DNA of 64,000 nt from an uncultured candidatus Brocadiaceae bacterium (GCA_964542765.1 CAZIVO010000001.1:390-64389); one strand, 5' to 3'. Shown: positions 1 through 56,634, counted from the first letter of the stretch. The notes: generated by a model not told the origin, from the letters alone. Numbers and translations are program-made.

Positions 1-575
1 AGGGGGCAGTTACGGCGTTGAATGGCGACGACGGCATGCTTTCGCCGGTCGACCCGGCCGACATGGTGGTTTCGGCGATGCCCTGGCATGCGCTCGCGAA
101 GGCCTTGCCGGGGAGGGCGTTTGCGATGGGCTTCGAAGGCCGTCCGATCGTGAATGTTCATCTGGAAGAAATCGCGGGGCTTCCCGATGAAGGCGCGCTG
201 GTCGCGCTGGTTGGCGGGCGGCCCTTCCAGTTCCTCTACCGCCCCCCCGAAGGCCCGCGAGGCCGCGTGACCTTGATCGCCGGAGATGCGCGGAGCCTCG
301 AAGGTTGTGGCGTCGATGAAGTGCTTCAGCGGGGCCGCGAGCAGATTGCCGCATACTTCCCGGGCAGCCAACCGGGTAGCGGGGGTGCCGCGAGGGTGAC
401 CAAGGAGCCCCTGGCGACCCTTCTCACCGACCCTGAGGGTCTCTCCCGCCGCCCTTGCCCCGGGAAGGTACCAGGAGTTTCCAACCTGAGGATCTGCGGA
501 GACTGGACGCAGACGGGCCTGCCTTCGACGCTCGAGGGTGCTGCCGAATCAGCTTCCTTGGCTTTGGCCGATTGA
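1..575 (+). CDS. FAD-dependent oxidoreductase, amine-oxidase/phytoene-desaturase/HpnE family; C-terminal fragment, 5' end lies outside the window
   Basis: The frame of ORF 18..575 stays open back to the window edge, with stop TGA at 573-575. The tail [30 protein letters not shown] matches the C-terminal GDW..TG.P.T.EGA FAD-binding signature of this family. Confidence 0.6.
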
Positions 576-580
576 CGAGC

Positions 581-609
581 TTGGACTACATGTTGGCTTG
601 CCCTATACC
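581..609 (+). promoter_or_regulatory. candidate sigma70-type promoter (TTGGAC-N17-TATACC) upstream of the selenoperoxiredoxin gene
   Basis: TTGGAC at 581-586, a 17-nt spacer, then TATACC at 604-609, about 75 nt upstream of ATG 683. Hexamer match only. Confidence 0.3.
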
Positions 610-682
610 AACCGTCACGCCGCGCGCTCGGTGCGTGCGGGGCACCATTTCACACGACAAGAAAAACGACAAAAGAGGTTCC

Positions 683-1282
683 ATGGCAGTACTCGCCAAC
701 CGACCAGCTCCCGACTTCACCGTGCAAGCGGTGATGGAGGATGGGTCGACCCAGGAGGTATCGCTGTCCAGCTACAAGGGCAGCCATGTCGTCCTGTTCT
801 TCTATCCCAAAGATTTCACCTTCGTTTGACCATCCGAGTTGATCGCCTTTGACCACCGTATCGGTGAGTTCAAAGAGCGTGGCGTCCAGGTCTTGGGCGT
901 CTCCATCGACGACGCGGAGTCTCATGCAAAATGGCGTGAGACAGCCATCAACGAGGGCGGCATCGGGCCGGTCCAGTATCCACTACTTTGCGATCCGGAC
1001 CGCAGCATGACCAATGCTTACGATCTGCTGCACGAGGAGAGCACCTTCTCGCTGCGCGGCACCTTCCTGATCGACAAGGATGGAGTGGTGCAGAGCCAGG
1101 TCGTCAACAACCTGCCGCTGGGTCGAGATATTGACGAGACCCTGCGGATGGTCGATGCACTTCAGTTCCTCGAGACCGAAGGCCAGGTTTGTCCAGCCGG
1201 TTGGTCGAAGGGCAAGCCGGGCATGACTCCCAGTGAAGAGGGGGTCAAGGCTTACCTGGCGGACAACGCCGACAGCCTTTAG
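683..1282 (+). CDS. typical 2-Cys peroxiredoxin (AhpC/Prx1 family) with in-frame UGA at 827-829 at the peroxidatic-Cys position; predicted selenocysteine-containing enzyme
   Basis: ATG 683 is preceded by AAAAGAGG. ORFs 455..829 and 839..1282 share one frame and are separated only by TGA 827-829. Read-through gives [19 protein letters not shown] (family motif FYPLDFTFVCPTE). The resolving-Cys motif EGQVCPAGW is present, and the joined length of 199 aa is normal for the family. Confidence 0.85.
844..879 (+). promoter_or_regulatory. candidate bacterial SECIS hairpin downstream of UGA 827-829
   Basis: Hand-folded imperfect hairpin. The core is CACCG/CGGUG (854-858/862-866) with a UAU loop (GUAUC if the closing pair opens). 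It extends to 844/879 with three single-nucleotide 3' bulges and starts 15 nt after the UGA. Confidence 0.5.
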
Positions 1283-1337
1283 ATCCGAGGCATTTGTCTT
1301 TGCGGGCGCAGCGCTGATGTCGGCGCGGCGCCCGTTC

Positions 1338-3017
1338 TCATTCCACATGGATATGCCGTCCGCCGTTTGCCTTGGCGAGACGAGCGAGAAACTCGGTGGC
1401 GTTCTTGTCGCCAAAGGTGACCGTGTGGATGTTCAGTTTGCGCAGGCGGTTCGCCTCGGTCACGCGGTGGATGATCTCGTCCTTGTCGATGACCTTGCCC
1501 CAGCTCGGAGCGCCGTCGCTGAGCACGTAAACGGTGTCGAAAGCCAGTCCGTAGTACTTGTCGTAGAGTCCGCGACCGGCGAAGTTCAAGATGCGGTCCA
1601 GGGCTCCGTAGAGATTGGTGGCGCCAGCGGGCTGCAAGCTATCGAAGTAGCTGCCCAGGAGATCGTCCCGGGAAGTGTCGTCGAGCTTGACCAACTCGAG
1701 TTGACCGTCGCGCTGTTCGCGCCAGACGCTGACTTCTTCGCTGAAGACAACAAGGTTGAACATCGTGCCATCGGGGAGCCCCATCACGATCTTTTTCAAT
1801 TCTTCGACCACCAGCTTTGCCTTGGTGGTTGTCGCGCCGGGCGAGGCCGATGTGGTTTTGGATTTCAGGGTGACCGGTTCGGCCATCGAACCCGAGAAAT
1901 CGAGAACGAAGACAACGCGGTCGGACTCGATGTCGATCGAGAAGAACTTCTGGTACCGGGTTGCTGACGCGCTCTCCTTGGCGAGCTTGGCATCACCTGT
2001 GTAGCGGAAGGATGCTCCCTCCTTGCGCCAGAAGGCTTCCCAGAGGCGGGCGTTGCCCGGTAGGATTTTTTGGCCGGTCAGGCCTTCGAGCAGGCGATGG
2101 ATCCGCATGTCCAGTGCCCAGGGGTCCTTCTTCTTGCTGGTTTCTGCCTTGAGGCCGGCGATCAGAACCGGGATCACATGCTTGCTTCGCAGCTTGGCGA
2201 GGTTTTCGGCCGCCGCCGCTCGAACTTGCCAGACCCGGTCGCGCAGCAGGAGAGGTTTCACCCGGCTGATCACATGATCGCGCAACTTGGCATGCTCGGC
2301 GGTGATCGTTTCGATCTCGGTTTCGTCGGTCAGTGGCGCCAGAGATTTGCCCAGAGCATTGAGGGCGGCGATGCGAACATTGGGTTCGCTGTCGCGCAAG
2401 AGCCCGATGAAGTGAGGGATCGTCTCCTGCGTTGCGATGACGCTGAGAGAGTTGACGGCCCTGACCCGTTCCTGGGGAGGCAAGCTCTGCGTGGCTTTCA
2501 GCAGTGCGAGGATACCGGGAACACTGTCCCTGAGTGCGAGGATGCGCATGGCGGCAGCACGCGGCAGCGCGGTCTTTTCGGCTTCGGCCCCGCGCGCCGA
2601 CAGTTGCAACTGCAAGGCGAGCCATCGGTCGAGGCCGCGGACCTCCATGGCAGCGATGTGTTTGCGCGCGAGCGACCGGACCTTCCATGGCTGGAGTTCG
2701 CGTTCCAGGGAAACCCGATCCGTGGATACCGGCTTTGTTCCGAGGCTTGGCTGCACGCAAGCGACCGTGAAGAGACGCTTGGCGCTTGCCAGGGTGTTCC
2801 ATCGCGCCATCGAGCCGAGGATCATGTCGACCTGAGTGATGGCGGCGCGGTCCTCGACACCTCCTCGCATGATGCGAAAGGCACCTTGTCGATACTGCGC
2901 CAGCCACTTCTCGAAGGCCTCGACATCGGCGCCGAAGCTCGAGGGGCCGTCGTCGGTTGGTTTCTGGGCTGCCGCCAGGGTCGCCAAGCCCGAAAGGATC
3001 ACCGCAGCCAATCGCAT
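1338..3017 (-). CDS. secreted HEAT-repeat / von Willebrand factor A (vWA) domain protein
   Basis: Signal-like N-terminus MRLAAVILSGLATLAAAQ (ATG 3017; the ORF is open to 3077). HEAT-like repeats are present (SEPNVRIAALNALGK, VWQVRAAAAENLAKL). The vWA MIDAS motif VVFVLDFSGSM lies in the C-terminal half. Confidence 0.75.
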   Translation of the reverse strand: MRLAAVILSGLATLAAAQKPTDDGPSSFGADVEAFEKWLAQYRQGAFRIMRGGVEDRAAITQVDMILGSMARWNTLASAKRLFTVACVQPSLGTKPVSTDRVSLERELQPWKVRSLARKHIAAMEVRGLDRWLALQLQLSARGAEAEKTALPRAAAMRILALRDSVPGILALLKATQSLPPQERVRAVNSLSVIATQETIPHFIGLLRDSEPNVRIAALNALGKSLAPLTDETEIETITAEHAKLRDHVISRVKPLLLRDRVWQVRAAAAENLAKLRSKHVIPVLIAGLKAETSKKKDPWALDMRIHRLLEGLTGQKILPGNARLWEAFWRKEGASFRYTGDAKLAKESASATRYQKFFSIDIESDRVVFVLDFSGSMAEPVTLKSKTTSASPGATTTKAKLVVEELKKIVMGLPDGTMFNLVVFSEEVSVWREQRDGQLELVKLDDTSRDDLLGSYFDSLQPAGATNLYGALDRILNFAGRGLYDKYYGLAFDTVYVLSDGAPSWGKVIDKDEIIHRVTEANRLRKLNIHTVTFGDKNATEFLARLAKANGGRHIHVE

Positions 3018-3102
3018 GCCCCGTACATAGCTTCCCGAGGCTTGGTCAGGAAGCCCCGTTGGCGTTTGGGGGGGCAATTCTGCTCGCCTTGACGACCCGT
3101 GG

Positions 3103-4263
3103 TCAGCCGACTTTTGCGAGCGCTGCGTCCAGGTCGGCGATCAGGTCCTCGACGGCCTCTATGCCGACCGAGAGCCGCAGAAGGCCGTCGCTGATCCCCA
3201 TGCGCTGCCGCTCCTCGGCTGACATCCCCGCATGGGACAGCCTCGCCGGGATGCAGATCAGGGATTCGATGCCGCCCAGGCTCGGCCCCGCGATGGGCAG
3301 GCGCAGCGCTCCGATCAACTCGAGCGCCGCAGTCGCGTCGCCGGTGAGTTCGAAGGAGACGACGCCACCGAATCCGCTGAAGAGCCGGCGTGCCAGATCA
3401 TGCTGCGGGTGTTCAGGGAGGCCGGGGTAATGGACCTTCGAGACCGAGGCCTGACTTTCGAGGTGGCGAGCGATGTTTCCGGCACTCTCGTTCTGCCGCT
3501 GCACGCGCAGGCTCAGCGTTTTGAGTCCTCGGTGCATGAGGAAACATGCGTGTGGATCAAGGCATCCACCGAGGTGGTTAAGGCGATGTGTGACTTTTGT
3601 AACCAGATCATGCTTGCCGATGATCGCGCCGGCGGTGAGGTCGGTGTGCCCGTTGAGATACTTGGTGGCGCTGTGGAGCACGAGGTCATAGCCGATCTCG
3701 CAGGGGCGGAAATTGATCGGGGTCGCAAAGGTGCTATCGATCATCGAGACCAGACCGTGCTCTTGTGCGAAGCTCACGACAGCTCGGTGATCGATGATCT
3801 GGAGAAGTGGATTGCTGATGGCCTCGACGAGGATGACTTTTGTTTGCGGCTTCAGCTGGCTGCGCCAGGAATCCGGGTCGGCGCTGTCGATGACGTCGTG
3901 ATGGATGTCGAACGAAGCCAGTTCCTCGGTAAGCAGGTTGTGTGTTCCGCCGTAGAGACAATCTTGGACGAGAAGGTGATCGCCGCTACGCAGTACCGCG
4001 AACAGGCTTGCCGAGATGGCGGCCATGCCGCTGGCTGCCACGGCCGCGGTTTCTCCTCCCTCCAGCGAGGCGAGCTTCTTGTTGAGAACCTCATGGTTGG
4101 GCAGGTTGTTGAGGCGGGGATAGGGGATCGCATGGTAGTCCTCGCCGCCGGTGTGCTCGAAAACCGTCGACTGGAAGATGGGCACGATGGCGGCGCCGCC
4201 GATGCGCGGATCGGGCTCCCCGGCGTGGATCAGGCGGGTGTCGATGTGGTGCTTGTCGGACAT
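3103..4263 (-). CDS. PLP-dependent Cys/Met-metabolism enzyme (cystathionine gamma-synthase / beta-lyase / methionine gamma-lyase family)
   Basis: 386 aa with family-typical features: N-terminus TRLIHAG, the SATKYLNGHTD PLP-lysine motif, and C-terminal LRLSVGIE. Confidence 0.85.
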   Translation of the reverse strand: MSDKHHIDTRLIHAGEPDPRIGGAAIVPIFQSTVFEHTGGEDYHAIPYPRLNNLPNHEVLNKKLASLEGGETAAVAASGMAAISASLFAVLRSGDHLLVQDCLYGGTHNLLTEELASFDIHHDVIDSADPDSWRSQLKPQTKVILVEAISNPLLQIIDHRAVVSFAQEHGLVSMIDSTFATPINFRPCEIGYDLVLHSATKYLNGHTDLTAGAIIGKHDLVTKVTHRLNHLGGCLDPHACFLMHRGLKTLSLRVQRQNESAGNIARHLESQASVSKVHYPGLPEHPQHDLARRLFSGFGGVVSFELTGDATAALELIGALRLPIAGPSLGGIESLICIPARLSHAGMSAEERQRMGISDGLLRLSVGIEAVEDLIADLDAALAKVG

Positions 4264-19263: not shown

Positions 19264-19295
19264 GGGCGGGCCTTTGGGCCCGCCCTATTTTTTTT
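19264..19295 (+). terminator. Rho-independent terminator
   Basis: Perfect 9-bp GC stem GGGCGGGCC/GGCCCGCCC with loop TTTG, followed by TATTTTTTTT. Confidence 0.75.
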
Positions 19296-19393
19296 GCCCG
19301 AAAACCTTCGCCACAAGCTTCGTTTCTCTCCCTGGTGTGATCCGTGCCGCCCCGGTTTTGTCGGCAACCCATGTTCCCTGTCGGAGCTGGCTC

Positions 19394-19399
19394 TACAAT
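19394..19399 (+). promoter_or_regulatory. -10-like hexamer TACAAT upstream of ctaA
   Basis: GGCTCTACAAT lies 36 nt upstream of ATG 19435. No convincing -35 element was seen. Confidence 0.3.
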
Positions 19400-19434
19400 C
19401 CCGCGCCGCCCCTCCCTCGACCTTCGCCGAAAAC

Positions 19435-20364
19435 ATGCCACACTCCAGCCCCGTTACCCGAGCACCCTCGGAGAGCCCTCCTGCACAGGGGCTCTATCGG
19501 TATTCCCTTTGGGTGGCTGTCTCGACGCTCGTTCTGATCAAGCTCGGTGCCATGGTCACCAGCACGGGGTCGGGGATGGCCTACCTGGACTGGCCGCTTT
19601 CGAACGGCTCACTTCTGCCGCCGGACATGATCGAGGACCCGGCCAAGTTCTTCGAACACTTCCACCGCATGGCGGGGGCTTTGGTGGGTCTCTTGGTCGT
19701 TGCGCTGACCGTTTGGGTGTTCAGGTCGGAAGATCGTCGCTGGCTGAAGCAGCTCACGCTCGGTGTTCTGATCCTTGTCTGCGCTCAAGGGGTCATCGGC
19801 GGAGTGGGTGTGCTCAAGGGCCTCCCCGTTATGACATCGGTCACCCACGGAGTGCTCGCTCAGGTGATCTTTTGTCTTCTGGCACTGGTGGCCTTTGCGT
19901 TGTCGCCGACCTGGCGGGAGCGGATGACAGCGCCCGCTCGGATGGTTCGTCGAGCCCGCCTGATGGCCGCGGTCGCCCTGGCTCTGGTGTTTCTTCAACT
20001 CGTCGCCGGAGCGATTCTCCGTCATGCGAACCTGCCCGGCTTGTTGTGGGTCCACGTGTCCATGGCGCTGCTGGTCGCTCTCGCGATCCTCGCCGCGGCG
20101 CAATACTGCGGGACAAGGCTTTCGGAGGTGCCGGGTTTCACGGACACCGGCCGCCTGATTCTCATGATCTTGGTTGTTCAACTCATCCTCGGCTACTTGA
20201 CCTTCGTCATCCGGCGGCTGAAGGATCCTTCCAATATCGAATATCTCGGCAGAAGCTTTGTTGTGACCGCACATGTTGCGGTCGGCGCCCTGATGTTCTT
20301 GTCGTCGGCCCTCTTGTTGTATCGAGTGCTGCGCAATGTCGAGCCAGGGGGTGAATCGGTTTGA
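19435..20364 (+). CDS. ctaA: heme A synthase (COX15/CtaA family)
   Basis: Multi-TM protein containing GAMVTSTGSGMAYLDWPL and conserved His residues in the TM helices. Start chosen at MPHSSP; the ORF is open from 19294. Confidence 0.8.
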   Translation: MPHSSPVTRAPSESPPAQGLYRYSLWVAVSTLVLIKLGAMVTSTGSGMAYLDWPLSNGSLLPPDMIEDPAKFFEHFHRMAGALVGLLVVALTVWVFRSEDRRWLKQLTLGVLILVCAQGVIGGVGVLKGLPVMTSVTHGVLAQVIFCLLALVAFALSPTWRERMTAPARMVRRARLMAAVALALVFLQLVAGAILRHANLPGLLWVHVSMALLVALAILAAAQYCGTRLSEVPGFTDTGRLILMILVVQLILGYLTFVIRRLKDPSNIEYLGRSFVVTAHVAVGALMFLSSALLLYRVLRNVEPGGESV

Positions 20365-21230
20365 TGGGTCTTCTTGGAAACCGCGCCCGAGCCTATCTGG
20401 AACTCGGCAAGCCGCGCCTGTCCCTGACCGCGGTGTTCGCGGTTGTGACCGGGGTCTATATCGGTTCTCCGGGATTTCCGGATGCAGGCCTTGTCATTTC
20501 CTGTGCTGTTGCGGCAATGCTGGTGGCGATGGGAGGCAGCGCCCTCAACATGTTTGCCGAGCGCGATCATGACGGCCGAATGAAGCGCACGTCCGGACGG
20601 CCCTTGCCCGATGGACGGCTACGGCCGGTGGAAGGGTTGGTCGCCGGAGCGATTGCTGTTGTCTGTGGGGTCGCCCTGTTCGTCGTTACGAGCAACCTTC
20701 TGGCGGCAGGTCTTTGCGCCCTGATCGCATTGATCTACGTGCTGATCTACACGCCGCTCAAGCGCGTCACCGCCCTGAACACTCTGGTGGGTGCTGTCCC
20801 TGGAGGGTTGCCGCCGGTCGTTGGCTACGCGGCCGCTTCCGGCGTGATCGACATGCGAGCTCTGCTGCTCTTCGTGATCCTGTTCTTGTGGCAGATCCCG
20901 CACTTTCTCGCGATTGCGTGGCGATACCGCGATGAGTATGCGCTGGGGGGCATGAGGATGATGCCCATGGTCGACCCGGACGGGCGATCCACCGGGGCGC
21001 AGATGATCATCTTCACGGTATCGCTCGTGGTAGCGACGCTGGCGGCGTATTTCGCGGGTATGGCGGGCAATCTTTACCTGGTGACGGCCGTGGTTCTGGG
21101 CCTGATTTTCCTGGTATCTTCCATCACTGCGGGCGTCTTTCGCCAAGAGTCTGGGATGCGGAGATGCTTCCTCGTTTCGGTGGTGTACCTTCCCGTGCTC
21201 TTCGGAGTGATGATGTTGGACAAAACGTGA
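20364..21230 (+). CDS. ctaB: protoheme IX farnesyltransferase (heme O synthase)
   Basis: UbiA-family motifs NMFAERDHDGRM and YTPLKR are present. The ATG overlaps the ctaA stop (TGATG); TTG at 20361 is an alternative start. Confidence 0.85.
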   Translation: MGLLGNRARAYLELGKPRLSLTAVFAVVTGVYIGSPGFPDAGLVISCAVAAMLVAMGGSALNMFAERDHDGRMKRTSGRPLPDGRLRPVEGLVAGAIAVVCGVALFVVTSNLLAAGLCALIALIYVLIYTPLKRVTALNTLVGAVPGGLPPVVGYAAASGVIDMRALLLFVILFLWQIPHFLAIAWRYRDEYALGGMRMMPMVDPDGRSTGAQMIIFTVSLVVATLAAYFAGMAGNLYLVTAVVLGLIFLVSSITAGVFRQESGMRRCFLVSVVYLPVLFGVMMLDKT

Positions 21231-22177
21231 GCGAACCAGCGATCAAGGCCAGCGGGTTGACCTACAGCTACGGGGATCGTGTGGCCTGTGACGACATCTC
21301 GTTCGAGGTGCCAGCCGGAGGGGTATGGGGATTCCTTGGGCCCAATGGCTCGGGCAAGTCGACCCTGTTCAAGGTGCTCACGACGATCTATCCGATGCAA
21401 TCCGGTCATGTGACCATGTTCGGACATGATCTTGCGCGAGAGTCGTCGGCAGTCCGTGCACACCTTGGCGTGGTGTTCCAGTCGCCAGCGCTCGACCGCA
21501 AACTCACGGTCCGAGAGAACCTCGTGCATGGCGGCCACATGTATGGGATTTCGGGCAAGGACCTTCACAGCAGGGTTGACGAGGCGATCGAATCGGCAGG
21601 GCTTACCGATCGCGCGAAGGATCGCGTCGAGGAATTGTCCGGCGGACTTCGCCGCCGCGTGGAGTTTGGCAAGGCACTGTTGCCGAGGCCGCATTGCTTG
21701 ATCATGGACGAGCCGAGTACCGGGCTCGACCCGGGCGCTCGGCGAGACCTCTGGGACTGGGTCCGCAGACTCGATGATGTCACGGTGTTGTTCACGACGC
21801 ACCTGATGGATGAGGCCGAGATGGCCGACCACATCGCCATCCTCGATGATGGCAAGATCGTGGGTGAAGGCGCCCCCTCTGATCTCAAGTCTGAAGTTGG
21901 CAGTCAGGTTCTCGAAATCGAGTCGTCGGCAGCCGAAGTTCTCGCCACGGAGATTCGCGATGGCCTCGCGGCCGGGGCCGAGGTGAGCGTGGTTGGTCGG
22001 TCGGTTCGCATCCTCCGCGAGGATGTGCACCAGATGGTGGGGGGGCTGATGGATGCGTTTGCTGACCGCATCAACCGGCTGACGATCAGCAGCCCGACTC
22101 TCGAAGATGTGTATATCCGCAAGACGGGTCACCGCTTTGTTGAAGAGGAAGATGCGACCGGGGGGGCGAGCAAATGA
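21227..22177 (+). CDS. ABC transporter ATP-binding protein (ABC-2/DrrA-like)
   Basis: The GTG start overlaps the ctaB stop. Walker A GPNGSGKST, signature LSGGLRRR, Walker B LIMDEPSTGLD. Confidence 0.85.
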   Translation: MSEPAIKASGLTYSYGDRVACDDISFEVPAGGVWGFLGPNGSGKSTLFKVLTTIYPMQSGHVTMFGHDLARESSAVRAHLGVVFQSPALDRKLTVRENLVHGGHMYGISGKDLHSRVDEAIESAGLTDRAKDRVEELSGGLRRRVEFGKALLPRPHCLIMDEPSTGLDPGARRDLWDWVRRLDDVTVLFTTHLMDEAEMADHIAILDDGKIVGEGAPSDLKSEVGSQVLEIESSAAEVLATEIRDGLAAGAEVSVVGRSVRILREDVHQMVGGLMDAFADRINRLTISSPTLEDVYIRKTGHRFVEEEDATGGASK

Positions 22178-23411: not shown

Positions 23412-23738
23412 TCAGATCGTCACGACTTTTTCGGCCCGATCGATCTCGCGCAGGATCGTGTCCATGTCGGAGACACTCCCGGTTGCGGCCTCGATCCCGA
23501 AATGCTCGACACAGGTGCCGCAGGGCAGGACGTCGACGCCGTTTTCGTGCAGGAGGGTCAACTCGGTGAGCACGGGCGAGTCCTGGCTCGCGAGCTTGAC
23601 GCCGGAGTTGAACAAGGCGATGGCGGTCAACTCGTCCATGCTGATTGCCTTGCGCAGGAAGGTGCCGAGCACCTTCCTGCCGAGATCCCGGTCGCCGTGG
23701 CCCATTTGATCCTTGTTGATGATGAGGACTGTTTTCAT
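23412..23738 (-). CDS. DsrE-fold protein resembling the C-terminal domain of the selenium-metabolism protein YedF (TIGR03527-like), stand-alone
   Basis: ATG 23738 is preceded by AAGGAA. MKTVLIINKDQMGHGDRDLGRKVLGTFL...FNSGVKL...VDVLPCGTCVEHFG...DMDTILREIDRAEKVVTI matches my recollection of the YedF C-terminal pattern (mG.Gd.eLG, N.GV.L, CGTC, ...kvi). Confidence 0.6.
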   Translation of the reverse strand: MKTVLIINKDQMGHGDRDLGRKVLGTFLRKAISMDELTAIALFNSGVKLASQDSPVLTELTLLHENGVDVLPCGTCVEHFGIEAATGSVSDMDTILREIDRAEKVVTI

Positions 23739-25503: not shown

Positions 25504-26043
25504 ATGCGGGTAGAACTTCTTTCTCTTGCTCTCCTCTTCATTCCCTTGGCCATGCAGGACCCAGCCCCAGCCCCGCCGAAGACCACCGTCGGTCAGCCGA
25601 AGGTGGGACAAGCGGCTCCGAAGTTCCGCTTGAACGACCATGGTGGCGCTGCCGTCAAGGTTGGCGGCAAATCGAAGACCTGGACAGTGCTGGCTTTCTA
25701 TCCGAAGGCCGCGACTCCTGGTTGAACTCGCGAGGTGTGTTCGCTGCGGGACGCAGCGGCAGGACTGACAGAGGTCGGAGCCCTCGTCTATGGAATCAGC
25801 CTGGACGACGTTGCTTCACAAGCGGCCTTCGCCAAGGCACAGAAGTTGAACTTCCCCCTTCTGAGCGATGTCGATGGCAGCGTCGCCCGGAAATATGGCG
25901 TTCTGATGGGGCTCATGCCCATGGCCAAGCGAGTTACCTTCGTGATCGACCCCAAGGGGGTGCTGCGGCACATCGACAAGAAGGTCAATGTGAAGCAGCA
26001 CGGGACCGATCTCGTGGCGTTGATTCGCGAACTGAGTCGGTGA
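25504..26043 (+). CDS. Bcp/PrxQ-type peroxiredoxin with signal peptide and in-frame UGA at 25723-25725 at the peroxidatic-Cys position; predicted selenocysteine enzyme (U-x4-C)
   Basis: ORFs 25414..25725 and 25735..26043 share one frame and are separated only by the TGA. Read-through gives LAFYPKAATPG-U-TREVCSLRD (family motif FYPkdfTPGCTxExCxFRD), followed by GISLDD and NFPLLSD. The N-terminus MRVELLSLALLFIPLAMQ is signal-like. Confidence 0.85.
25741..25759 (+). promoter_or_regulatory. candidate bacterial SECIS hairpin downstream of UGA 25723-25725
   Basis: Perfect 7-bp stem CGCUGCG/CGCAGCG (25742-25748/25752-25758) with a GGA apical loop, plus a U-G pair at 25741/25759. The hairpin starts at 25741, with 15 nt between it and the UGA. 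Confidence 0.55.
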
Positions 26044-26063
26044 AGCCTTGTCCGAAGGGATGA

Positions 26064-26210
26064 CTAGGCGAGCATCTTCAGGGCGAAATTGACCAGCAGT
26101 AGCGCGGCCAAGAGCACCATGGTGGCGCTCGGTCGCCAGGCTCGTGACGAGGTGTTCCTTTTCGGAGCGGCGCCTTGGCGATGGGGTCGATGTGGGTTTG
26201 ATGTATACAT
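26064..26210 (-). CDS. possible small tail-anchored membrane protein (48 aa)
   Basis: Hand translation gives MYTSNPHRPHRQGAAPKRNTSSRAWRPSATMVLLAALLLVNFALKMLA. It is below the ORF-track cutoff, and a basic N-terminus plus a C-terminal TM segment is the only support. Confidence 0.2.
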   Translation of the reverse strand: MYTSNPHRPHRQGAAPKRNTSSRAWRPSATMVLLAALLLVNFALKMLA

Positions 26211-26424
26211 CTCGATTCCATACCCTGCCGTGGGTTGGGATCGAGTTGGACGGAGTCCGGCCCGGGTTATTCCCGAAGTTTAGAGGCGAAGAAGCCCATC
26301 GGTTGAGGGTTTGGGGCGCATTGCCGGCCCTTGGCCAGGGCGGGACGCCCACGGAGTCGTTTCGCACCGCTGGTATCACGCGTTGGCGGAGGCTAAACAT
26401 GGCCGCCGACGACCCTATCTCCCC

Positions 26425-27384
26425 ATGTCTTGTCCTCCCTGCCTCTTCGACCGCCAACTCCTCCCCAAGCCTTGGGGGGGTAGCTCCCTTTCGTCCGCGC
26501 TCGGCATCTTGTTGCCGGACGGGGAGAAGATCGGTGAATCCTGGGAGGTCTACGACGGCCCTGAGGGCTCCAGCAAGTTGCGGAACAGCGATGTGACGCT
26601 GGCGGATCTGCTGCGCGAGGATGCGGCCGCCTTGCTCGGAGAGGGGGTGGAGATGACTCCGCAGGGGCATTTCCCGTTGCAACTCAAGTTCATCGATGCC
26701 AGCGAACCGTTGTCCGTGCAGGTCCATCCCGACCAGGAACAGGCAACTGCGGGTGGTGGTTGTGGCAAGACGGAATCCTGGGTTGTTTTGACCGCGAGCG
26801 AGGATGCTCGCATTCTGCGGGATGTGAAGGCTGGCGTTGATGCTGCGGCGCTCACGGCCGTGGCCGGCACTGGCGAGATCCAGGGCTTGTTGCACAGTTT
26901 CGTTCCACGACAGGGCGATGTCGTCCATCTGCCTCCGGGGACCATCCATTCGGTCGGACCAGGCGTTGTTCTTTACGAGATCCAGACCAACTCCGGACTG
27001 ACCTGTCGGCTGTGGGATTGGGGGCGGCCCAGAGAAATGCATATCGAGGCAGCACTCACCGCACTGCGGGTCGAGGGGTCACAGCAGTCGACCGTGACGC
27101 CGCGACCTGTCGGTGAAGGCAAGGAGCTTCTGGTCGATGAGCATGAGTTTCGATTGGAGCGATGGTACGTTTCCGTGCCGGTTTGTTTCGAGCCACAAGA
27201 TCGATTCCGGATACTGACGGTGGTCAAGGGGCATCTGGCTCTCGGCTGGCGAAGTTCCGGCCAGTGCGAGCCGCTCCAACTCCGAGCAGGGGATACGGCT
27301 CTGGTTCCAGCGCATCTCGATGCCGTTTATCTGTCGCCGATCGGCGATGTTACTCTTTTATGTGTTTCTCCCGGAGAGAGGTGA
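26425..27384 (+). CDS. manA: type I (class I) mannose-6-phosphate isomerase
   Basis: Contains KPWGG, GESWEV, LQLKFIDASEPLSVQVHPD, GKTESWVVL, VHLPPGTIHSVGPG, YEIQ and WDWGR. Confidence 0.75.
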   Translation: MSCPPCLFDRQLLPKPWGGSSLSSALGILLPDGEKIGESWEVYDGPEGSSKLRNSDVTLADLLREDAAALLGEGVEMTPQGHFPLQLKFIDASEPLSVQVHPDQEQATAGGGCGKTESWVVLTASEDARILRDVKAGVDAAALTAVAGTGEIQGLLHSFVPRQGDVVHLPPGTIHSVGPGVVLYEIQTNSGLTCRLWDWGRPREMHIEAALTALRVEGSQQSTVTPRPVGEGKELLVDEHEFRLERWYVSVPVCFEPQDRFRILTVVKGHLALGWRSSGQCEPLQLRAGDTALVPAHLDAVYLSPIGDVTLLCVSPGER

Positions 27385-53345: not shown

Positions 53346-53687
53346 ATGCTTTCGATGCGTCTTGCACCAGTGCTATCGGGCTTCCCCATCCTCGCGATCT
53401 TCATCGTATGGGGCGCTGCCTGCTCTTCTCCTCAGGAGGGCGGGGATCTGGCGGTGGGTGTCCCTACCCGGGTGGTGGTCCTGGAGGAGGGTTTCGTGCG
53501 GTTCGAGGGGCAAAGAATGGCTCAGGAGGCCTTCTTTCTGGAGATCCGGACCCGGGTTCGGGCCGTGGACCCCCGGCCCGAACTTCTGCCCTGGGTCATC
53601 GTCCTTGCCGAGGCCCCCTTGCCGCCGGGCTTCACGGTGGAGTTGCGCAATGCAGGGGTCCAGCACATCCGGCTGGGGGACGGCTGA
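53346..53687 (+). CDS. small lipoprotein, ExbD/TolR-like fold possible
   Basis: Lipobox in MLSMRLAPVLSGFPILAIFIVWGAAC. The start could be 53304, 53346 or 53355. The fold suggestion is by-eye only. Confidence 0.45.
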   Translation: MLSMRLAPVLSGFPILAIFIVWGAACSSPQEGGDLAVGVPTRVVVLEEGFVRFEGQRMAQEAFFLEIRTRVRAVDPRPELLPWVIVLAEAPLPPGFTVELRNAGVQHIRLGDG

Positions 53688-53699
53688 ACGCAGCGAGAT

Positions 53700-54353
53700 A
53701 TGGACCGTCCCGACCTCGTGATCTTCGATATCGATGGTACCCTTCAGGATACCTGTAGCTGGTGGCCCCGGGTCTTGCGCGCAGGCTTGATCCGATTCCA
53801 GGAGCAGTGCGGTCTGGATCTTCCTTCGCCGAGTGATGATGAGGCGAATGCTGTCATCGGCTGCAAGAACGAAGGGGTTTGGGCCCCCTTTGTTCCCGGC
53901 CACGAGGATTTGTGGAGCGATCTTCGTGCCGTGGTCCTGCCGATGGAGGTCGATGCCATGACCGCTGGAGGTGACACTCTCTTTGCGGGTGCGCGCGACC
54001 TGTTGCGCCAGCTCCGAGGCCGAGGAGCGAATCTGGCGCTCGCCAGCAACTGTCATTCGACTTATCTCGCGGGCGTTTGCCGTGGGCAGAACCTCGACGA
54101 GTTGACCGACCATCAGTTCTGTCTCGACAGTCCCGGGGTCGCTTGCAAGGCGGACATGTTGCGGTTGGCGATCGAGGCTACCGGGGCCCGGAAGGCGGTC
54201 ATGGTGGGGGATCGAAACAATGACGCTGAGGCGGCTGCTGTCGCGGGCATCCCCTTTGTCTGGCGGGTCAACGAGCATGCGACCATGTCGGGTGATCCGA
54301 TCCGCTGGGATGGCGGTACGGCTGAGTTGCTGGAGATCTTGCAATTCGCGTAA
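53700..54353 (+). CDS. HAD-superfamily hydrolase (phosphoglycolate-phosphatase-like)
   Basis: Motif I VIFDIDGTL, motif II LASN and motif IV VGDRNNDAEAA. Confidence 0.8.
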   Translation: MDRPDLVIFDIDGTLQDTCSWWPRVLRAGLIRFQEQCGLDLPSPSDDEANAVIGCKNEGVWAPFVPGHEDLWSDLRAVVLPMEVDAMTAGGDTLFAGARDLLRQLRGRGANLALASNCHSTYLAGVCRGQNLDELTDHQFCLDSPGVACKADMLRLAIEATGARKAVMVGDRNNDAEAAAVAGIPFVWRVNEHATMSGDPIRWDGGTAELLEILQFA

Positions 54354-54429
54354 TGGGTGGGTGGGCGATCGCATCAGGAGGCGGGCCATTGCAGGTCCGA
54401 GCCCGCAGATCTGTTAGCATCGCCTGAGC

Positions 54430-55287
54430 ATGGACGAGCCCGTTCACGACATCTTCGAGGAGATCGTTCGGTTGCGCCGAGAAGGTGTGCCGGCGGCGCT
54501 CGCGACCATCGTTTCTACCCGGGGATCGACCCCGGGCCGGGAGAGTATGCGGTTGCTCGTGCTCGAAGACGGGACCTTTCTCGGGACGGTGGGTGGTGGT
54601 TGCCTCGAGGCCGAGGTGTATGAGGCGGCCAAGGAGGTGATCGCCGACGAGACGCCGCGCTCGCTGTCCTTTCGCCTGACCGAGAACGGCGCTCCGGATT
54701 CGGGCCTTCTGTGCGGCGGCGAGGTCACGATCTTCGTGGAACCGGTCACGACGCCGACACTGTGGATCTTCGGCGGTGGGCATGTCAGCAAGGCCTTGTG
54801 CCAGGTGGCGGCACTGGCGGGTTTTCGCGTGACGGTCGTCGATGATCGCGAGCGATATGCCTGCGCCGAGCGCTTTCCTCAGGCATCGGCCACCGTGGTC
54901 AGGCCTTACCCTGAGGCTGTCGCCGAGATGCCGCTCCGCGCGAACAGCTACGGTGTCATCGTCACTCGAGGGCACCAAGAAGACGCGACTGTCTTGCGGG
55001 CGCTTGCCTCTCGTTTTGCTGAGGGCGAGCACTTGCACTTTTTGGGCATGATCGGAAGCAAGGTGAAGCGCGGCATTCTGCTGGGCAAACTTCGTCGTGA
55101 TGGGGTCGCGGAAGAGTTTCTCTCGACCGTCCGTTCGCCGGTCGGTTTGAACCTCGGCGGTCGGACTCATGAGGAAATTGCGGTGGCGGTGGTCGGAGAG
55201 TTGATCGCGGTGCGCCGAACGGGTCGGGATGCGCGGGAGTCCTGGGCGGGACACAGGCGCCAGAATCATTCCCGCACCGGGATCTGA
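54430..55287 (+). CDS. XdhC/CoxI-family molybdoenzyme maturation accessory protein
   Basis: Contains ALATIVSTRGSTPG and GTVGGGCLE, then a Rossmann-like LWIFGGGHVSKALCQVAALAGFRVTVVDDR. Confidence 0.8.
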   Translation: MDEPVHDIFEEIVRLRREGVPAALATIVSTRGSTPGRESMRLLVLEDGTFLGTVGGGCLEAEVYEAAKEVIADETPRSLSFRLTENGAPDSGLLCGGEVTIFVEPVTTPTLWIFGGGHVSKALCQVAALAGFRVTVVDDRERYACAERFPQASATVVRPYPEAVAEMPLRANSYGVIVTRGHQEDATVLRALASRFAEGEHLHFLGMIGSKVKRGILLGKLRRDGVAEEFLSTVRSPVGLNLGGRTHEEIAVAVVGELIAVRRTGRDARESWAGHRRQNHSRTGI

Positions 55288-55578: not shown

Positions 55579-56634
55579 ATGCGCAAGACACTCGCTTCAA
55601 TCTTCGCTCTCGTCCTCGTCGCCGCACTTCCGGCACAAAAGGACACGATCTACTGGGCCGATGGCACGACCGTTGCCAAGGTCCGCATCATTAGTTTCAC
55701 CTGGACCGAGATCAAGTGGACCAAGAGCGGCCGGTCCGAGTCGCGTTCTGCTGATCAGGTTGCGCGAGTGGATTGCGAGAAGGTGAAAGACGCCTATCGC
55801 CGTGGCTATGGCGCGAGCGATGATGATGAGGCCTACAGCCAGTTTCGCATGGAGCGTGAGAAGCAGGTCAAGAGCAAGAAGCTGTTCATTGCCCAGTTCG
55901 GCTTCATGGAGGAGGCGAACCTGCTGATGGGGAACAAGGAGACAGGTGAGTGTTTTGCGACACTCGAACTGATGACCAAGGAATGCCCTGATTCGGGATT
56001 TTGCCCCGAGCTCTATCGAATGAAGCTCGAGTATTACCTGTCTTTGGGCAAGAAGGGTGCGGCGAACGCACTCAAGGTGGCCAGCACCTATCTCAATACA
56101 GCGCAGACGAAGGCTTGGCCCGATGGGTTCCTGCACGAGGCCCGGTTCTTCGGGCTGATGGCGGAAGTCGCGGGTGGAAAGATGTCGGAGGACAAGCTCA
56201 AGTCCGGACTCCGAGGTCTGCTTGGCGACACCGAGGGAGTCTATCCCCGGGTCGCCAATCAAGTGAAGTTACAGGTCGCAGATCAGCAACGTCGTCAGGG
56301 CGAGACTGCTGCTTCCAAGAAGTCATACAAGGAACTTGCCGATCAGGATGGGCTCGATGAGTCGACTCGCGCAGGTGCCTTGCTGGGTCTGGGCCAGGCG
56401 CAACTGGAAGAGGGCAATGCCACCGATCGCGAGCCTTATCGCGATGCGCTCCTGTCTTTCTTGCGGGTTTACATCGAGGCGGAGAAAGCGCCTTCGGACA
56501 TGCGGGCCAAGGCGCTGTACTTTGCCTCCCAAGCCTGTGAAAAATGGCGCGGCCAGGACTCGGCAGCCATGGGGCGCCGTTTGCGCGGGTATCTGAAGCG
56601 AGATTTCCCCGGGAGCGAGTGGGCAAAGCGATAA
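55579..56634 (+). CDS. hypothetical secreted protein, helical/TPR-like
   Basis: RBS GAGAAGG upstream. Signal peptide MRKTLASIFALVLVAALPAQ. No recognisable family. Confidence 0.55.
   Translation: MRKTLASIFALVLVAALPAQKDTIYWADGTTVAKVRIISFTWTEIKWTKSGRSESRSADQVARVDCEKVKDAYRRGYGASDDDEAYSQFRMEREKQVKSKKLFIAQFGFMEEANLLMGNKETGECFATLELMTKECPDSGFCPELYRMKLEYYLSLGKKGAANALKVASTYLNTAQTKAWPDGFLHEARFFGLMAEVAGGKMSEDKLKSGLRGLLGDTEGVYPRVANQVKLQVADQQRRQGETAASKKSYKELADQDGLDESTRAGALLGLGQAQLEEGNATDREPYRDALLSFLRVYIEAEKAPSDMRAKALYFASQACEKWRGQDSAAMGRRLRGYLKRDFPGSEWAKR

Follow-up and report, generated by a model that had tools for sequence, protein, structure and literature searches.

A predicted selenocysteine-containing 2-Cys peroxiredoxin split by a UGA codon in an uncultured candidatus Brocadiaceae bacterium

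The DNA considered here is a stretch of 64,000 nucleotides (nt) from an uncultured candidatus Brocadiaceae bacterium (GCA_964542765.1, CAZIVO010000001.1:390-64389), called the window below, and the gene of interest is a peroxiredoxin gene at positions 683-1282 on the plus strand. An original prediction, made from the sequence alone, held that two open reading frames (ORFs), 455..829 and 839..1282, share one frame and are parted only by the TGA at 827-829. Translation bears this out: the coding sequence comprises 199 codons followed by TAG (1280-1282), and its lone internal stop is that TGA, at codon 49. The start is placed at the ATG at 683 because homologues begin MSVLVNKPAPDF, and a ribosome-binding-site-like AAGAGG (673-678, plus strand) is found 4 nt upstream from this ATG. 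The joined product of 199 residues is of normal family length, as had been claimed. The UGA (827-829, plus strand) stands in the motif PKDFTFV-U (PxxxTxxU), where the peroxidatic cysteine (Cys) belongs, and the TGT of codon 170 (1190-1192, plus strand) encodes the resolving Cys in an intact EGQVCPAGW motif. Shortly after the UGA, a hairpin of the bacterial selenocysteine insertion sequence (SECIS) type spans 844-879 on the same strand. Farther along, at 25504-26043, lies a second peroxiredoxin gene whose catalytic codon is also TGA. The gene at 683-1282 very probably encodes a typical 2-Cys peroxiredoxin in which selenocysteine (Sec), inserted at UGA 827-829, replaces the peroxidatic Cys. This reading is well supported, as it rests on where the UGA lies and how well it is conserved, the selection acting on the gene, a covarying hairpin, the local nature of the recoding and the companion gene. 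All the sequence statements of the original prediction that were checked hold, and each refutation test that was run favoured it.

The family assignment is straightforward. With Cys put at the stop, the product matches the Pfam domains AhpC-TSA (PF00578; 6.5e-40) and 1-cysPrx_C (2.3e-10). Among solved structures, the 2-Cys peroxiredoxin 2h01 matches residues 8-193 (E=1e-57), and human PRDX1/2 match at about 1e-55. In the alignment to 2h01, the TGA falls opposite the peroxidatic Cys of FTFVCPSE, exactly as predicted, and Cys170 is opposite the resolving Cys in the VCPA of solved 2-Cys peroxiredoxins. The conserved arginine is found in SLRGTFLID, which aligns to LRAFVLID. The protein thus has the sequence hallmarks of a typical 2-Cys peroxiredoxin, namely the AhpC-TSA fold, the P-KDF-T-FV-U motif with the predicted Sec in the place of Cys, a resolving Cys in a VCP motif, and the C-terminal domain. 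Its best relatives in both structure and sequence are the Prx1/AhpC proteins (PRDX1/2, Plasmodium TPx1 and the NF011576 family), which are of equal length. The protein shares with them the resolving VCP motif, a GGIG that resembles their GGLG, and a C-terminal tail in which YL stands for YF; it differs in having the predicted Sec instead of Cys at the peroxidatic site.

The TGA at codon 49 recurs in other organisms. Searching a single genome from each species yielded 80 relatives. TGA is found at this codon in the five best metagenome-assembled genomes (MAGs) of Planctomycetota (L006-L010, 67-77% identity) and in two from Verrucomicrobiales (L012 and L013, 65% identity), while L011 and the other 72 relatives have TGC or TGT. 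In all, 76 Cys homologues carry one of these two codons at the position, so that the stop falls on the catalytic Cys when the gene is aligned to its Cys-containing homologues, a check of the register that the original prediction had proposed. The codon-49 TGA is shared by L002, L003-L005, L006-L010, L012, L013, L118 and L166. As expected of a selenoprotein gene, the in-frame UGA aligns with a redox-active Cys of homologues, and UGA-bearing orthologues exist elsewhere with a conserved downstream frame (L003-L010, L012, L013, L118 and L166).

The hairpin at 844-879 is the minimum-energy structure of its region. Its 15 pairs are interrupted on the 3' arm by two bulges of one nucleotide each (A867 and A876), and its apical loop is either UAU (859-861) or, with the closing G-C pair open, GUAUC (858-862). 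It begins 14 nt after the UGA, and the apical loop follows 28-29 nt after it. The bSECIS model calls for a loop of 3-9 nt, an upper stem of 4-16 base pairs (bp), a G as the first or second loop base, a distance of 16-37 nt from the UGA and an energy of at most -7.5 kcal/mol (PMC13188914). With the loop GUAUC, the hairpin satisfies this model, at a spacing of 28 nt and with an upper stem of 4 bp. That fold has an energy of -26.3 kcal/mol, which is 1.2 kcal/mol above the lowest value for the 75-nt stretch (-27.5). An equivalent loop, with G in first or second position and a spacing of 28-29 nt, occurs in 10 of the 11 core-clade sequences. The likeness to the bacterial SECIS consensus (bSECISearch; E. 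coli fdhF) lies in a stem-loop within the coding sequence, soon after the UGA, with a small loop in which G can take the first position and is followed by U. Similarity of sequence to the E. coli elements is neither expected nor seen.

Since the stability of the hairpin taken alone is not beyond chance, its significance rests on comparison. When 13 distinct genes with the TGA are aligned without gaps, 90.8% of the cells of the 15-pair structure are paired and compensatory changes affect 6 of the 15 pairs. On four of five measures, the values found are reached in none of 500 shuffles of the columns, and when the 3' partners are slid by 1-3 columns as a control, pairing falls to 20-51%. The window gene itself gives an example of such compensation. 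Most orthologues read GCT TTC GA...TTC GAA AAG CG, where the window has GCC TTT GA...TTC AAA GAG CG. On the 3' arm, EK is swapped to KE (A871 and G875); the synonymous changes GCT to GCC and TTC to TTT on the 5' arm offset this swap and restore pairs 24-52 and 27-49. In L003, pair 25-51 is retained through two amino acid replacements, F to I and K to N. The codons tell the same story: at sites with the same amino acid, codon identity among the Sec forms is 0.64 in codons 54-67 versus 0.39 elsewhere, and the synonymous conservation maximum of the gene lies at codons 51-70 in the Sec forms only. In four close Cys homologues, the corresponding values are 0.51 for the hairpin codons versus 0.53 outside them. 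Of the 15 pairs, between 12 and 15 form in every one of the 15 TGA genes; in 71 distant Cys homologues, the mean is 7 and the maximum 11.

Several observations weigh against reading the hairpin as a SECIS element, and the UGA as Sec. Compared with dinucleotide shuffles, the stability of the hairpin is unremarkable (z = -1.28 for 820-900 and -1.71 for 827-885), and 20% of synonymous recodings drawn from the window's codon usage fold as well or better. Under uniform synonymous recoding, fold stability did not separate Sec from Cys forms. Because shuffles and recodings put it at chance level, stability alone was dropped as evidence. The prediction that a hairpin sits here at SECIS distance therefore stands as far as its minimum-energy fold, its covariation and its fit to the bSECIS model are concerned, but not on the strength of its stability. 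The minimum-energy loop UAU has no G, and the G rule of the bSECIS model requires the G858-C862 pair to be opened; G858 is invariant, yet it also serves as the second base in a conserved arginine codon. The conserved peptide IAFD...EFEKR accounts for part of the stem. Nor is the hairpin exclusive to TGA genes, because two Cys forms keep it, L208 (4001-4600) with 15 of 15 pairs and L210 (4001-4600) with 14 of 15. Other Cys forms are without it (L206, with 7 of 15 pairs, and L014). In the Cys forms that keep it, the hairpin may be left over from a Sec ancestor, or may measure how far the peptide dictates the stem. No SECIS or other Rfam family reaches the gathering threshold in the window, and at E values up to 10 the region 780-960 yields only TLS-PK3 at 9.7 bits, which is chance level. 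Finally, no gene for SelA, SelB or SelD and no tRNA-Sec was found within the 64-kb window: Pfam scans of its 51 ORFs returned none of the three proteins, ARAGORN and Rfam returned only a tRNA-Val, and tRNA scans of 17 related loci returned no tRNA-Sec. Complete sets of selA, selB and selD for Sec insertion are carried by some Planctomycetes (PMC4807772).

A second hairpin of 8 bp adjoins the first on its 3' side (881-901, plus strand; GGCGUCCA...UGGGCGUC) and was considered as part of the element, but rejected. It is conserved in the Sec forms, but three Cys homologues (L208, L011 and L014) form all 8 of its pairs as well. Because it forms equally well in these, it is best seen as a by-product of the sequence coding for G-V-Q-V-L-G-V.

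The companion gene (25504-26043, plus strand) was found in a gap between gene calls. Its product, a second selenoprotein candidate, is a peroxiredoxin of the BCP/PrxQ type whose N-terminus resembles a signal peptide, and the gene reads FYPKAATPG-U-TREVCSLRD across its own in-frame UGA (25723-25725, plus strand), which occupies the peroxidatic position. The Pfam AhpC-TSA domain crosses this TGA at 2.2e-35, and the PDB entry 5epf, a BCP-type peroxiredoxin, matches at 4.5e-23; in that alignment, the stop faces the Cys of TPGCT. A hairpin at 25741-25759 (plus strand), 23 nt from the UGA, has an 8-bp stem with GGA in its apical loop and fits the bSECIS model as a textbook case. A divergent homologue in L215, at 67% identity, has TGA at the same codon and the same stem-loop. 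In addition, at least 11 database clusters consist of C-terminal fragments of 102-104 residues that are 65-71% identical and start at a common point; they point to further TGA-bearing homologues of the BCP type. If the organism did not decode Sec, it would be very difficult to account for two different peroxiredoxin genes on one contig that each combine a TGA exactly at the catalytic codon with a conserved hairpin at SECIS distance behind it.

The possibility that keeps most weight beside Sec is read-through of the UGA without selenium, in which a near-cognate tRNA, a suppressor tRNA or a reassigned code would put Cys, Trp or Gly at the position. The base after UGA 827-829 is C. A UGA followed by C is a context reported to be leaky. 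The Sec machinery, moreover, is not among the genes of the window, and one ENA protein record has W at the position in a homologue. However, this record (P0002, 74% identity, from low-GC TARA DNA) has TGA in its DNA, and the W comes from the gene caller's choice to translate the contig with a code in which TGA is Trp (loci L003-L005, TARA). The window itself argues against reassignment. ctaA (19294-20364) and the ABC ATPase gene (21164-22177), named in the original prediction as genes that use TGA as a genuine stop, do both end in TGA, as do 32 of the 51 gene calls in total; because TGA terminates these genes, the code is standard and the recoding is local. Leakiness in general does not account for a conserved hairpin that fits the bSECIS model behind both UGAs, nor for UGAs placed exactly at the redox-active Cys in both genes, which is the signature of Sec. 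Read-through without selenium is therefore improbable.

Still less probable is a pseudogene, in which a nonsense mutation of TGC or TGT to TGA would have killed an ordinary Cys peroxiredoxin. A single base change suffices for this, and the closest full-length proteins in the databases (P0001, P0003 and P0004) carry Cys. But the same TGA is kept in orthologues of at least eight other organisms, at protein identities of 65-77%, without a further stop or a frameshift, and codon 49 is the sole in-frame stop in all eight of the full-length TGA orthologues checked. Over the 150 codons on the 3' side of the TGA, which would not be translated in a pseudogene, the ratio of nonsynonymous to synonymous substitution rates (dN/dS) is 0.11-0.21 relative to the window gene, with synonymous sites near saturation. 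The 48 codons on the 5' side are also conserved, with proportions of 0.13-0.31 for nonsynonymous differences (pN) versus 0.59-0.99 for synonymous ones (pS). Both halves of the gene are under purifying selection. The other peroxiredoxin of the window, furthermore, would have to bear the same "defect" at its catalytic codon. Because the TGA is shared, other stops are missing and dN/dS is low, a pseudogene or a sequencing error is excluded for practical purposes.

It is just as implausible that the locus makes two separate products, a peptide of 48 residues and a protein of 147 residues starting from the TTG at 839, although this is how gene callers annotate it. The 147-residue piece has neither the peroxidatic residue nor the first two strands of the fold, and no ribosome-binding motif is seen before 839, where the DNA is coding sequence. 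In every orthologue the two pieces are adjacent and in frame, with only the TGA between them. Least probable of all is a sequencing or assembly error at 827-829, since the TGA is confirmed in DNA from an independent sample (L002, a JGI metagenome contig with 2 nt differences elsewhere in 661 nt aligned), L212, a Logan contig built from a different read set, has the gene parted at this codon into 48-residue and 147-residue pieces, six of the seven proteins in the 90% cluster of the C-terminal piece are 147-residue fragments (JGI, ENA, NCBI and Logan sources), and the TGA is also verified in divergent orthologues.

With Sec thus preferred at codon 49, a model of synthesis and catalysis can be proposed from established knowledge. 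During translation, the hairpin at 844-879 would act as a bacterial SECIS. SelB would bind to it and bring Sec-tRNA(Sec) to UGA 827-829, so that termination would not take place and read-through would yield the 199-residue enzyme. The selenolate of U49 would then attack the peroxide, and the resulting selenenic acid would react with the partner subunit's Cys170, giving a selenenylsulfide. A reductant of the thioredoxin type would reduce this bond and recycle the enzyme. A partner of this type is argued for because no ahpF gene adjoins 683-1282 and because the product falls below the cut-off of the AhpF-dependent AhpC equivalog (TIGR03137; 145.2 bits vs 272).

Sec peroxiredoxins as such are long known and abundant (PMC1088965, PMC2398784, PMC13188914), and the original prediction already noted that selenoproteome surveys contain Sec-bearing Prx-like proteins. 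Those with a TxxU motif number 43 genes in the Sargasso Sea data (PMC1088965) and 253 genes, versus 7,348 Cys homologues, in the Global Ocean Sampling (GOS) data (PMC2398784). Five independent events of Cys-to-Sec replacement in the peroxiredoxin family were inferred in 2006 (PMC1794560). The surveyed TxxU family is like the present gene in its PF00578 domain, in Sec replacing the peroxidatic Cys and in a SECIS within the coding sequence just downstream, and it comes from marine surface or pelagic bacteria with many Cys homologues (PMC1088965, PMC2398784, PMC13188914). The Sargasso paper files its "Prx" under COG1225 (PMC1088965). The surveys pool all TxxU peroxiredoxins, and the Prx1-type clade to which 683-1282 belongs may or may not be among them. 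COG1225, which we take to be the BCP-type group, fits the gene at 25504-26043 better than that at 683-1282.

The closest characterized counterpart is PrxU of Eubacterium acidaminophilum, described as an experimentally established Sec peroxiredoxin (Sohling et al. 2001, as cited in PMC13188914). PrxU (model NF040737, peroxi_PrxU) has U at the peroxidatic position in DFTFVUPTE, like U49 here. Unlike PrxU, the window protein has no N-terminal extension, and it stands on a separate branch; it scores 155.2 bits against NF040737, for which the cut-off is 270. Its best-scoring model is NF011576 (peroxiredoxin C), at 236.3 bits against a cut-off of 301. A scan of metagenomes for the pattern D-F-T-[FY]-V-TGA-P-x-E gave at least 120 matches, and every match listed is a peroxiredoxin with TGA at the peroxidatic position. 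Among the 120 listed, the PrxU-like motif UPTE[LM]xAVA occurs in 109, of which the two that were scored pass NF040737 (373 and 409 bits), and the window-type motif UP[ST]ELIAF, of Prx1/AhpC type, occurs in 6. The PrxU-type matches come largely from sediment, wetland and fermentation metagenomes, in contrast to the window clade, whose contigs of stated source are marine (TARA and ALOHA). From these comparisons, the product of 683-1282 is predicted to work like PrxU while lying outside the PrxU equivalog, as a Sec form within a Prx1-like branch. Two PrxU-type loci from the metagenomes, L088 and L112, encode about 40 additional N-terminal residues, in which the motif GCARPTG is common to both; in L112, the one scored, the 233-position PrxU model aligns to this extension.

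Within this branch, Sec and Cys forms are mixed. In a quick neighbour-joining tree, the window, L006 and L003 form a group with U; P0006, P0008 and L208, all with C, are placed next to L012, L013 and L007 with U; and L011, with C, is next to L008-L010 and L166 with U. The two forms are interleaved at least three times, which is consistent with repeated exchange between Sec and Cys. The closest named database records are MAGs of Planctomycetota. It is possible, though we rate it slightly below an even chance, that the branch represents a separate and uncurated origin of Sec, with its own SECIS, among Prx1-like or "peroxiredoxin C"-like proteins of aerobic marine Planctomycetota and Verrucomicrobiota. 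If this is true, pairs of Sec and Cys enzymes with more than 70% identity could be used to test what benefit selenium brings, for instance in resistance to hyperoxidation. The interleaved Sec and Cys orthologues, together with the Cys forms that keep the hairpin, make a natural system for studying Sec/Cys exchange.

For a specialist none of this will be surprising, since Sec peroxiredoxins are already known and no new kind of mechanism is involved. What the gene reveals is a lineage of Sec peroxiredoxins that lies outside the curated PrxU model and is systematically mis-annotated as fragments. Its public forms are fragments of 48 and 147 residues, entries named "peroxiredoxin, partial", or, in one ENA record, a protein with a spurious Trp at the Sec position; the expectation that automated annotation would split the gene has thus come true. 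Because the gene is stored as fragments or with Trp, the selenoproteomes of marine Planctomycetota and Verrucomicrobiota are under-counted, and antioxidant capacity appears to be lost where it is probably enhanced. The practical benefit is thus above all a better annotation. As the PrxU model misses the lineage, a new model is needed for automatic annotation.

Other features of the window and of related loci are of minor interest. Upstream from 683-1282, a gene of the HpnE-like amine oxidase family is found at 3-575 on the plus strand; in the related contig L212, two genes of the squalene/phytoene synthase family (445-3499) lie farther upstream, in a region that corresponds to DNA beyond the start of the window. 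Together, the amine-oxidase gene and the two synthase-family genes form an arrangement that resembles hpnC-hpnD-hpnE. Downstream and convergent with 683-1282 is a gene for a HEAT/VWA protein. No functional tie between these neighbouring genes and the peroxiredoxin gene was seen. Next to the companion gene, a 408-residue ORF without family match (25816-27042, minus strand) runs antisense both to 25504-26043 and to a phosphomannose-isomerase-like gene (26311-27384, plus strand), and is probably not a gene. The ORF pair 6943-7806/7810-8439, also joined by a TGA, was considered as a further selenoprotein and rejected, as its junction (LWS*AMP) has no redox motif and no domain spans it. A gene at 23412-23738 on the minus strand encodes a small protein of DsrE-like type with the motif CGTC. 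Its match to TIGR03527 ("sulfurtransferase-like selenium metabolism protein YedF") covers the C-terminal two-thirds of the model and scores 92 bits, against a cut-off of 110; this YedF-like gene weakly hints at selenium metabolism on the contig. The exact sequences of a GroEL-type gene and of a gene for a Cys/Met-metabolism PLP enzyme have no entry in the collection that was searched. Finally, an accessory gene of the XdhC/CoxI family (54430-55287, plus strand) is flanked by ORFs without family match (53373-54389, minus strand, and 55579-56634, plus strand), and on the contig of the Cys-type orthologue L208, an XdhC-family gene lies a few kb from the peroxiredoxin gene.

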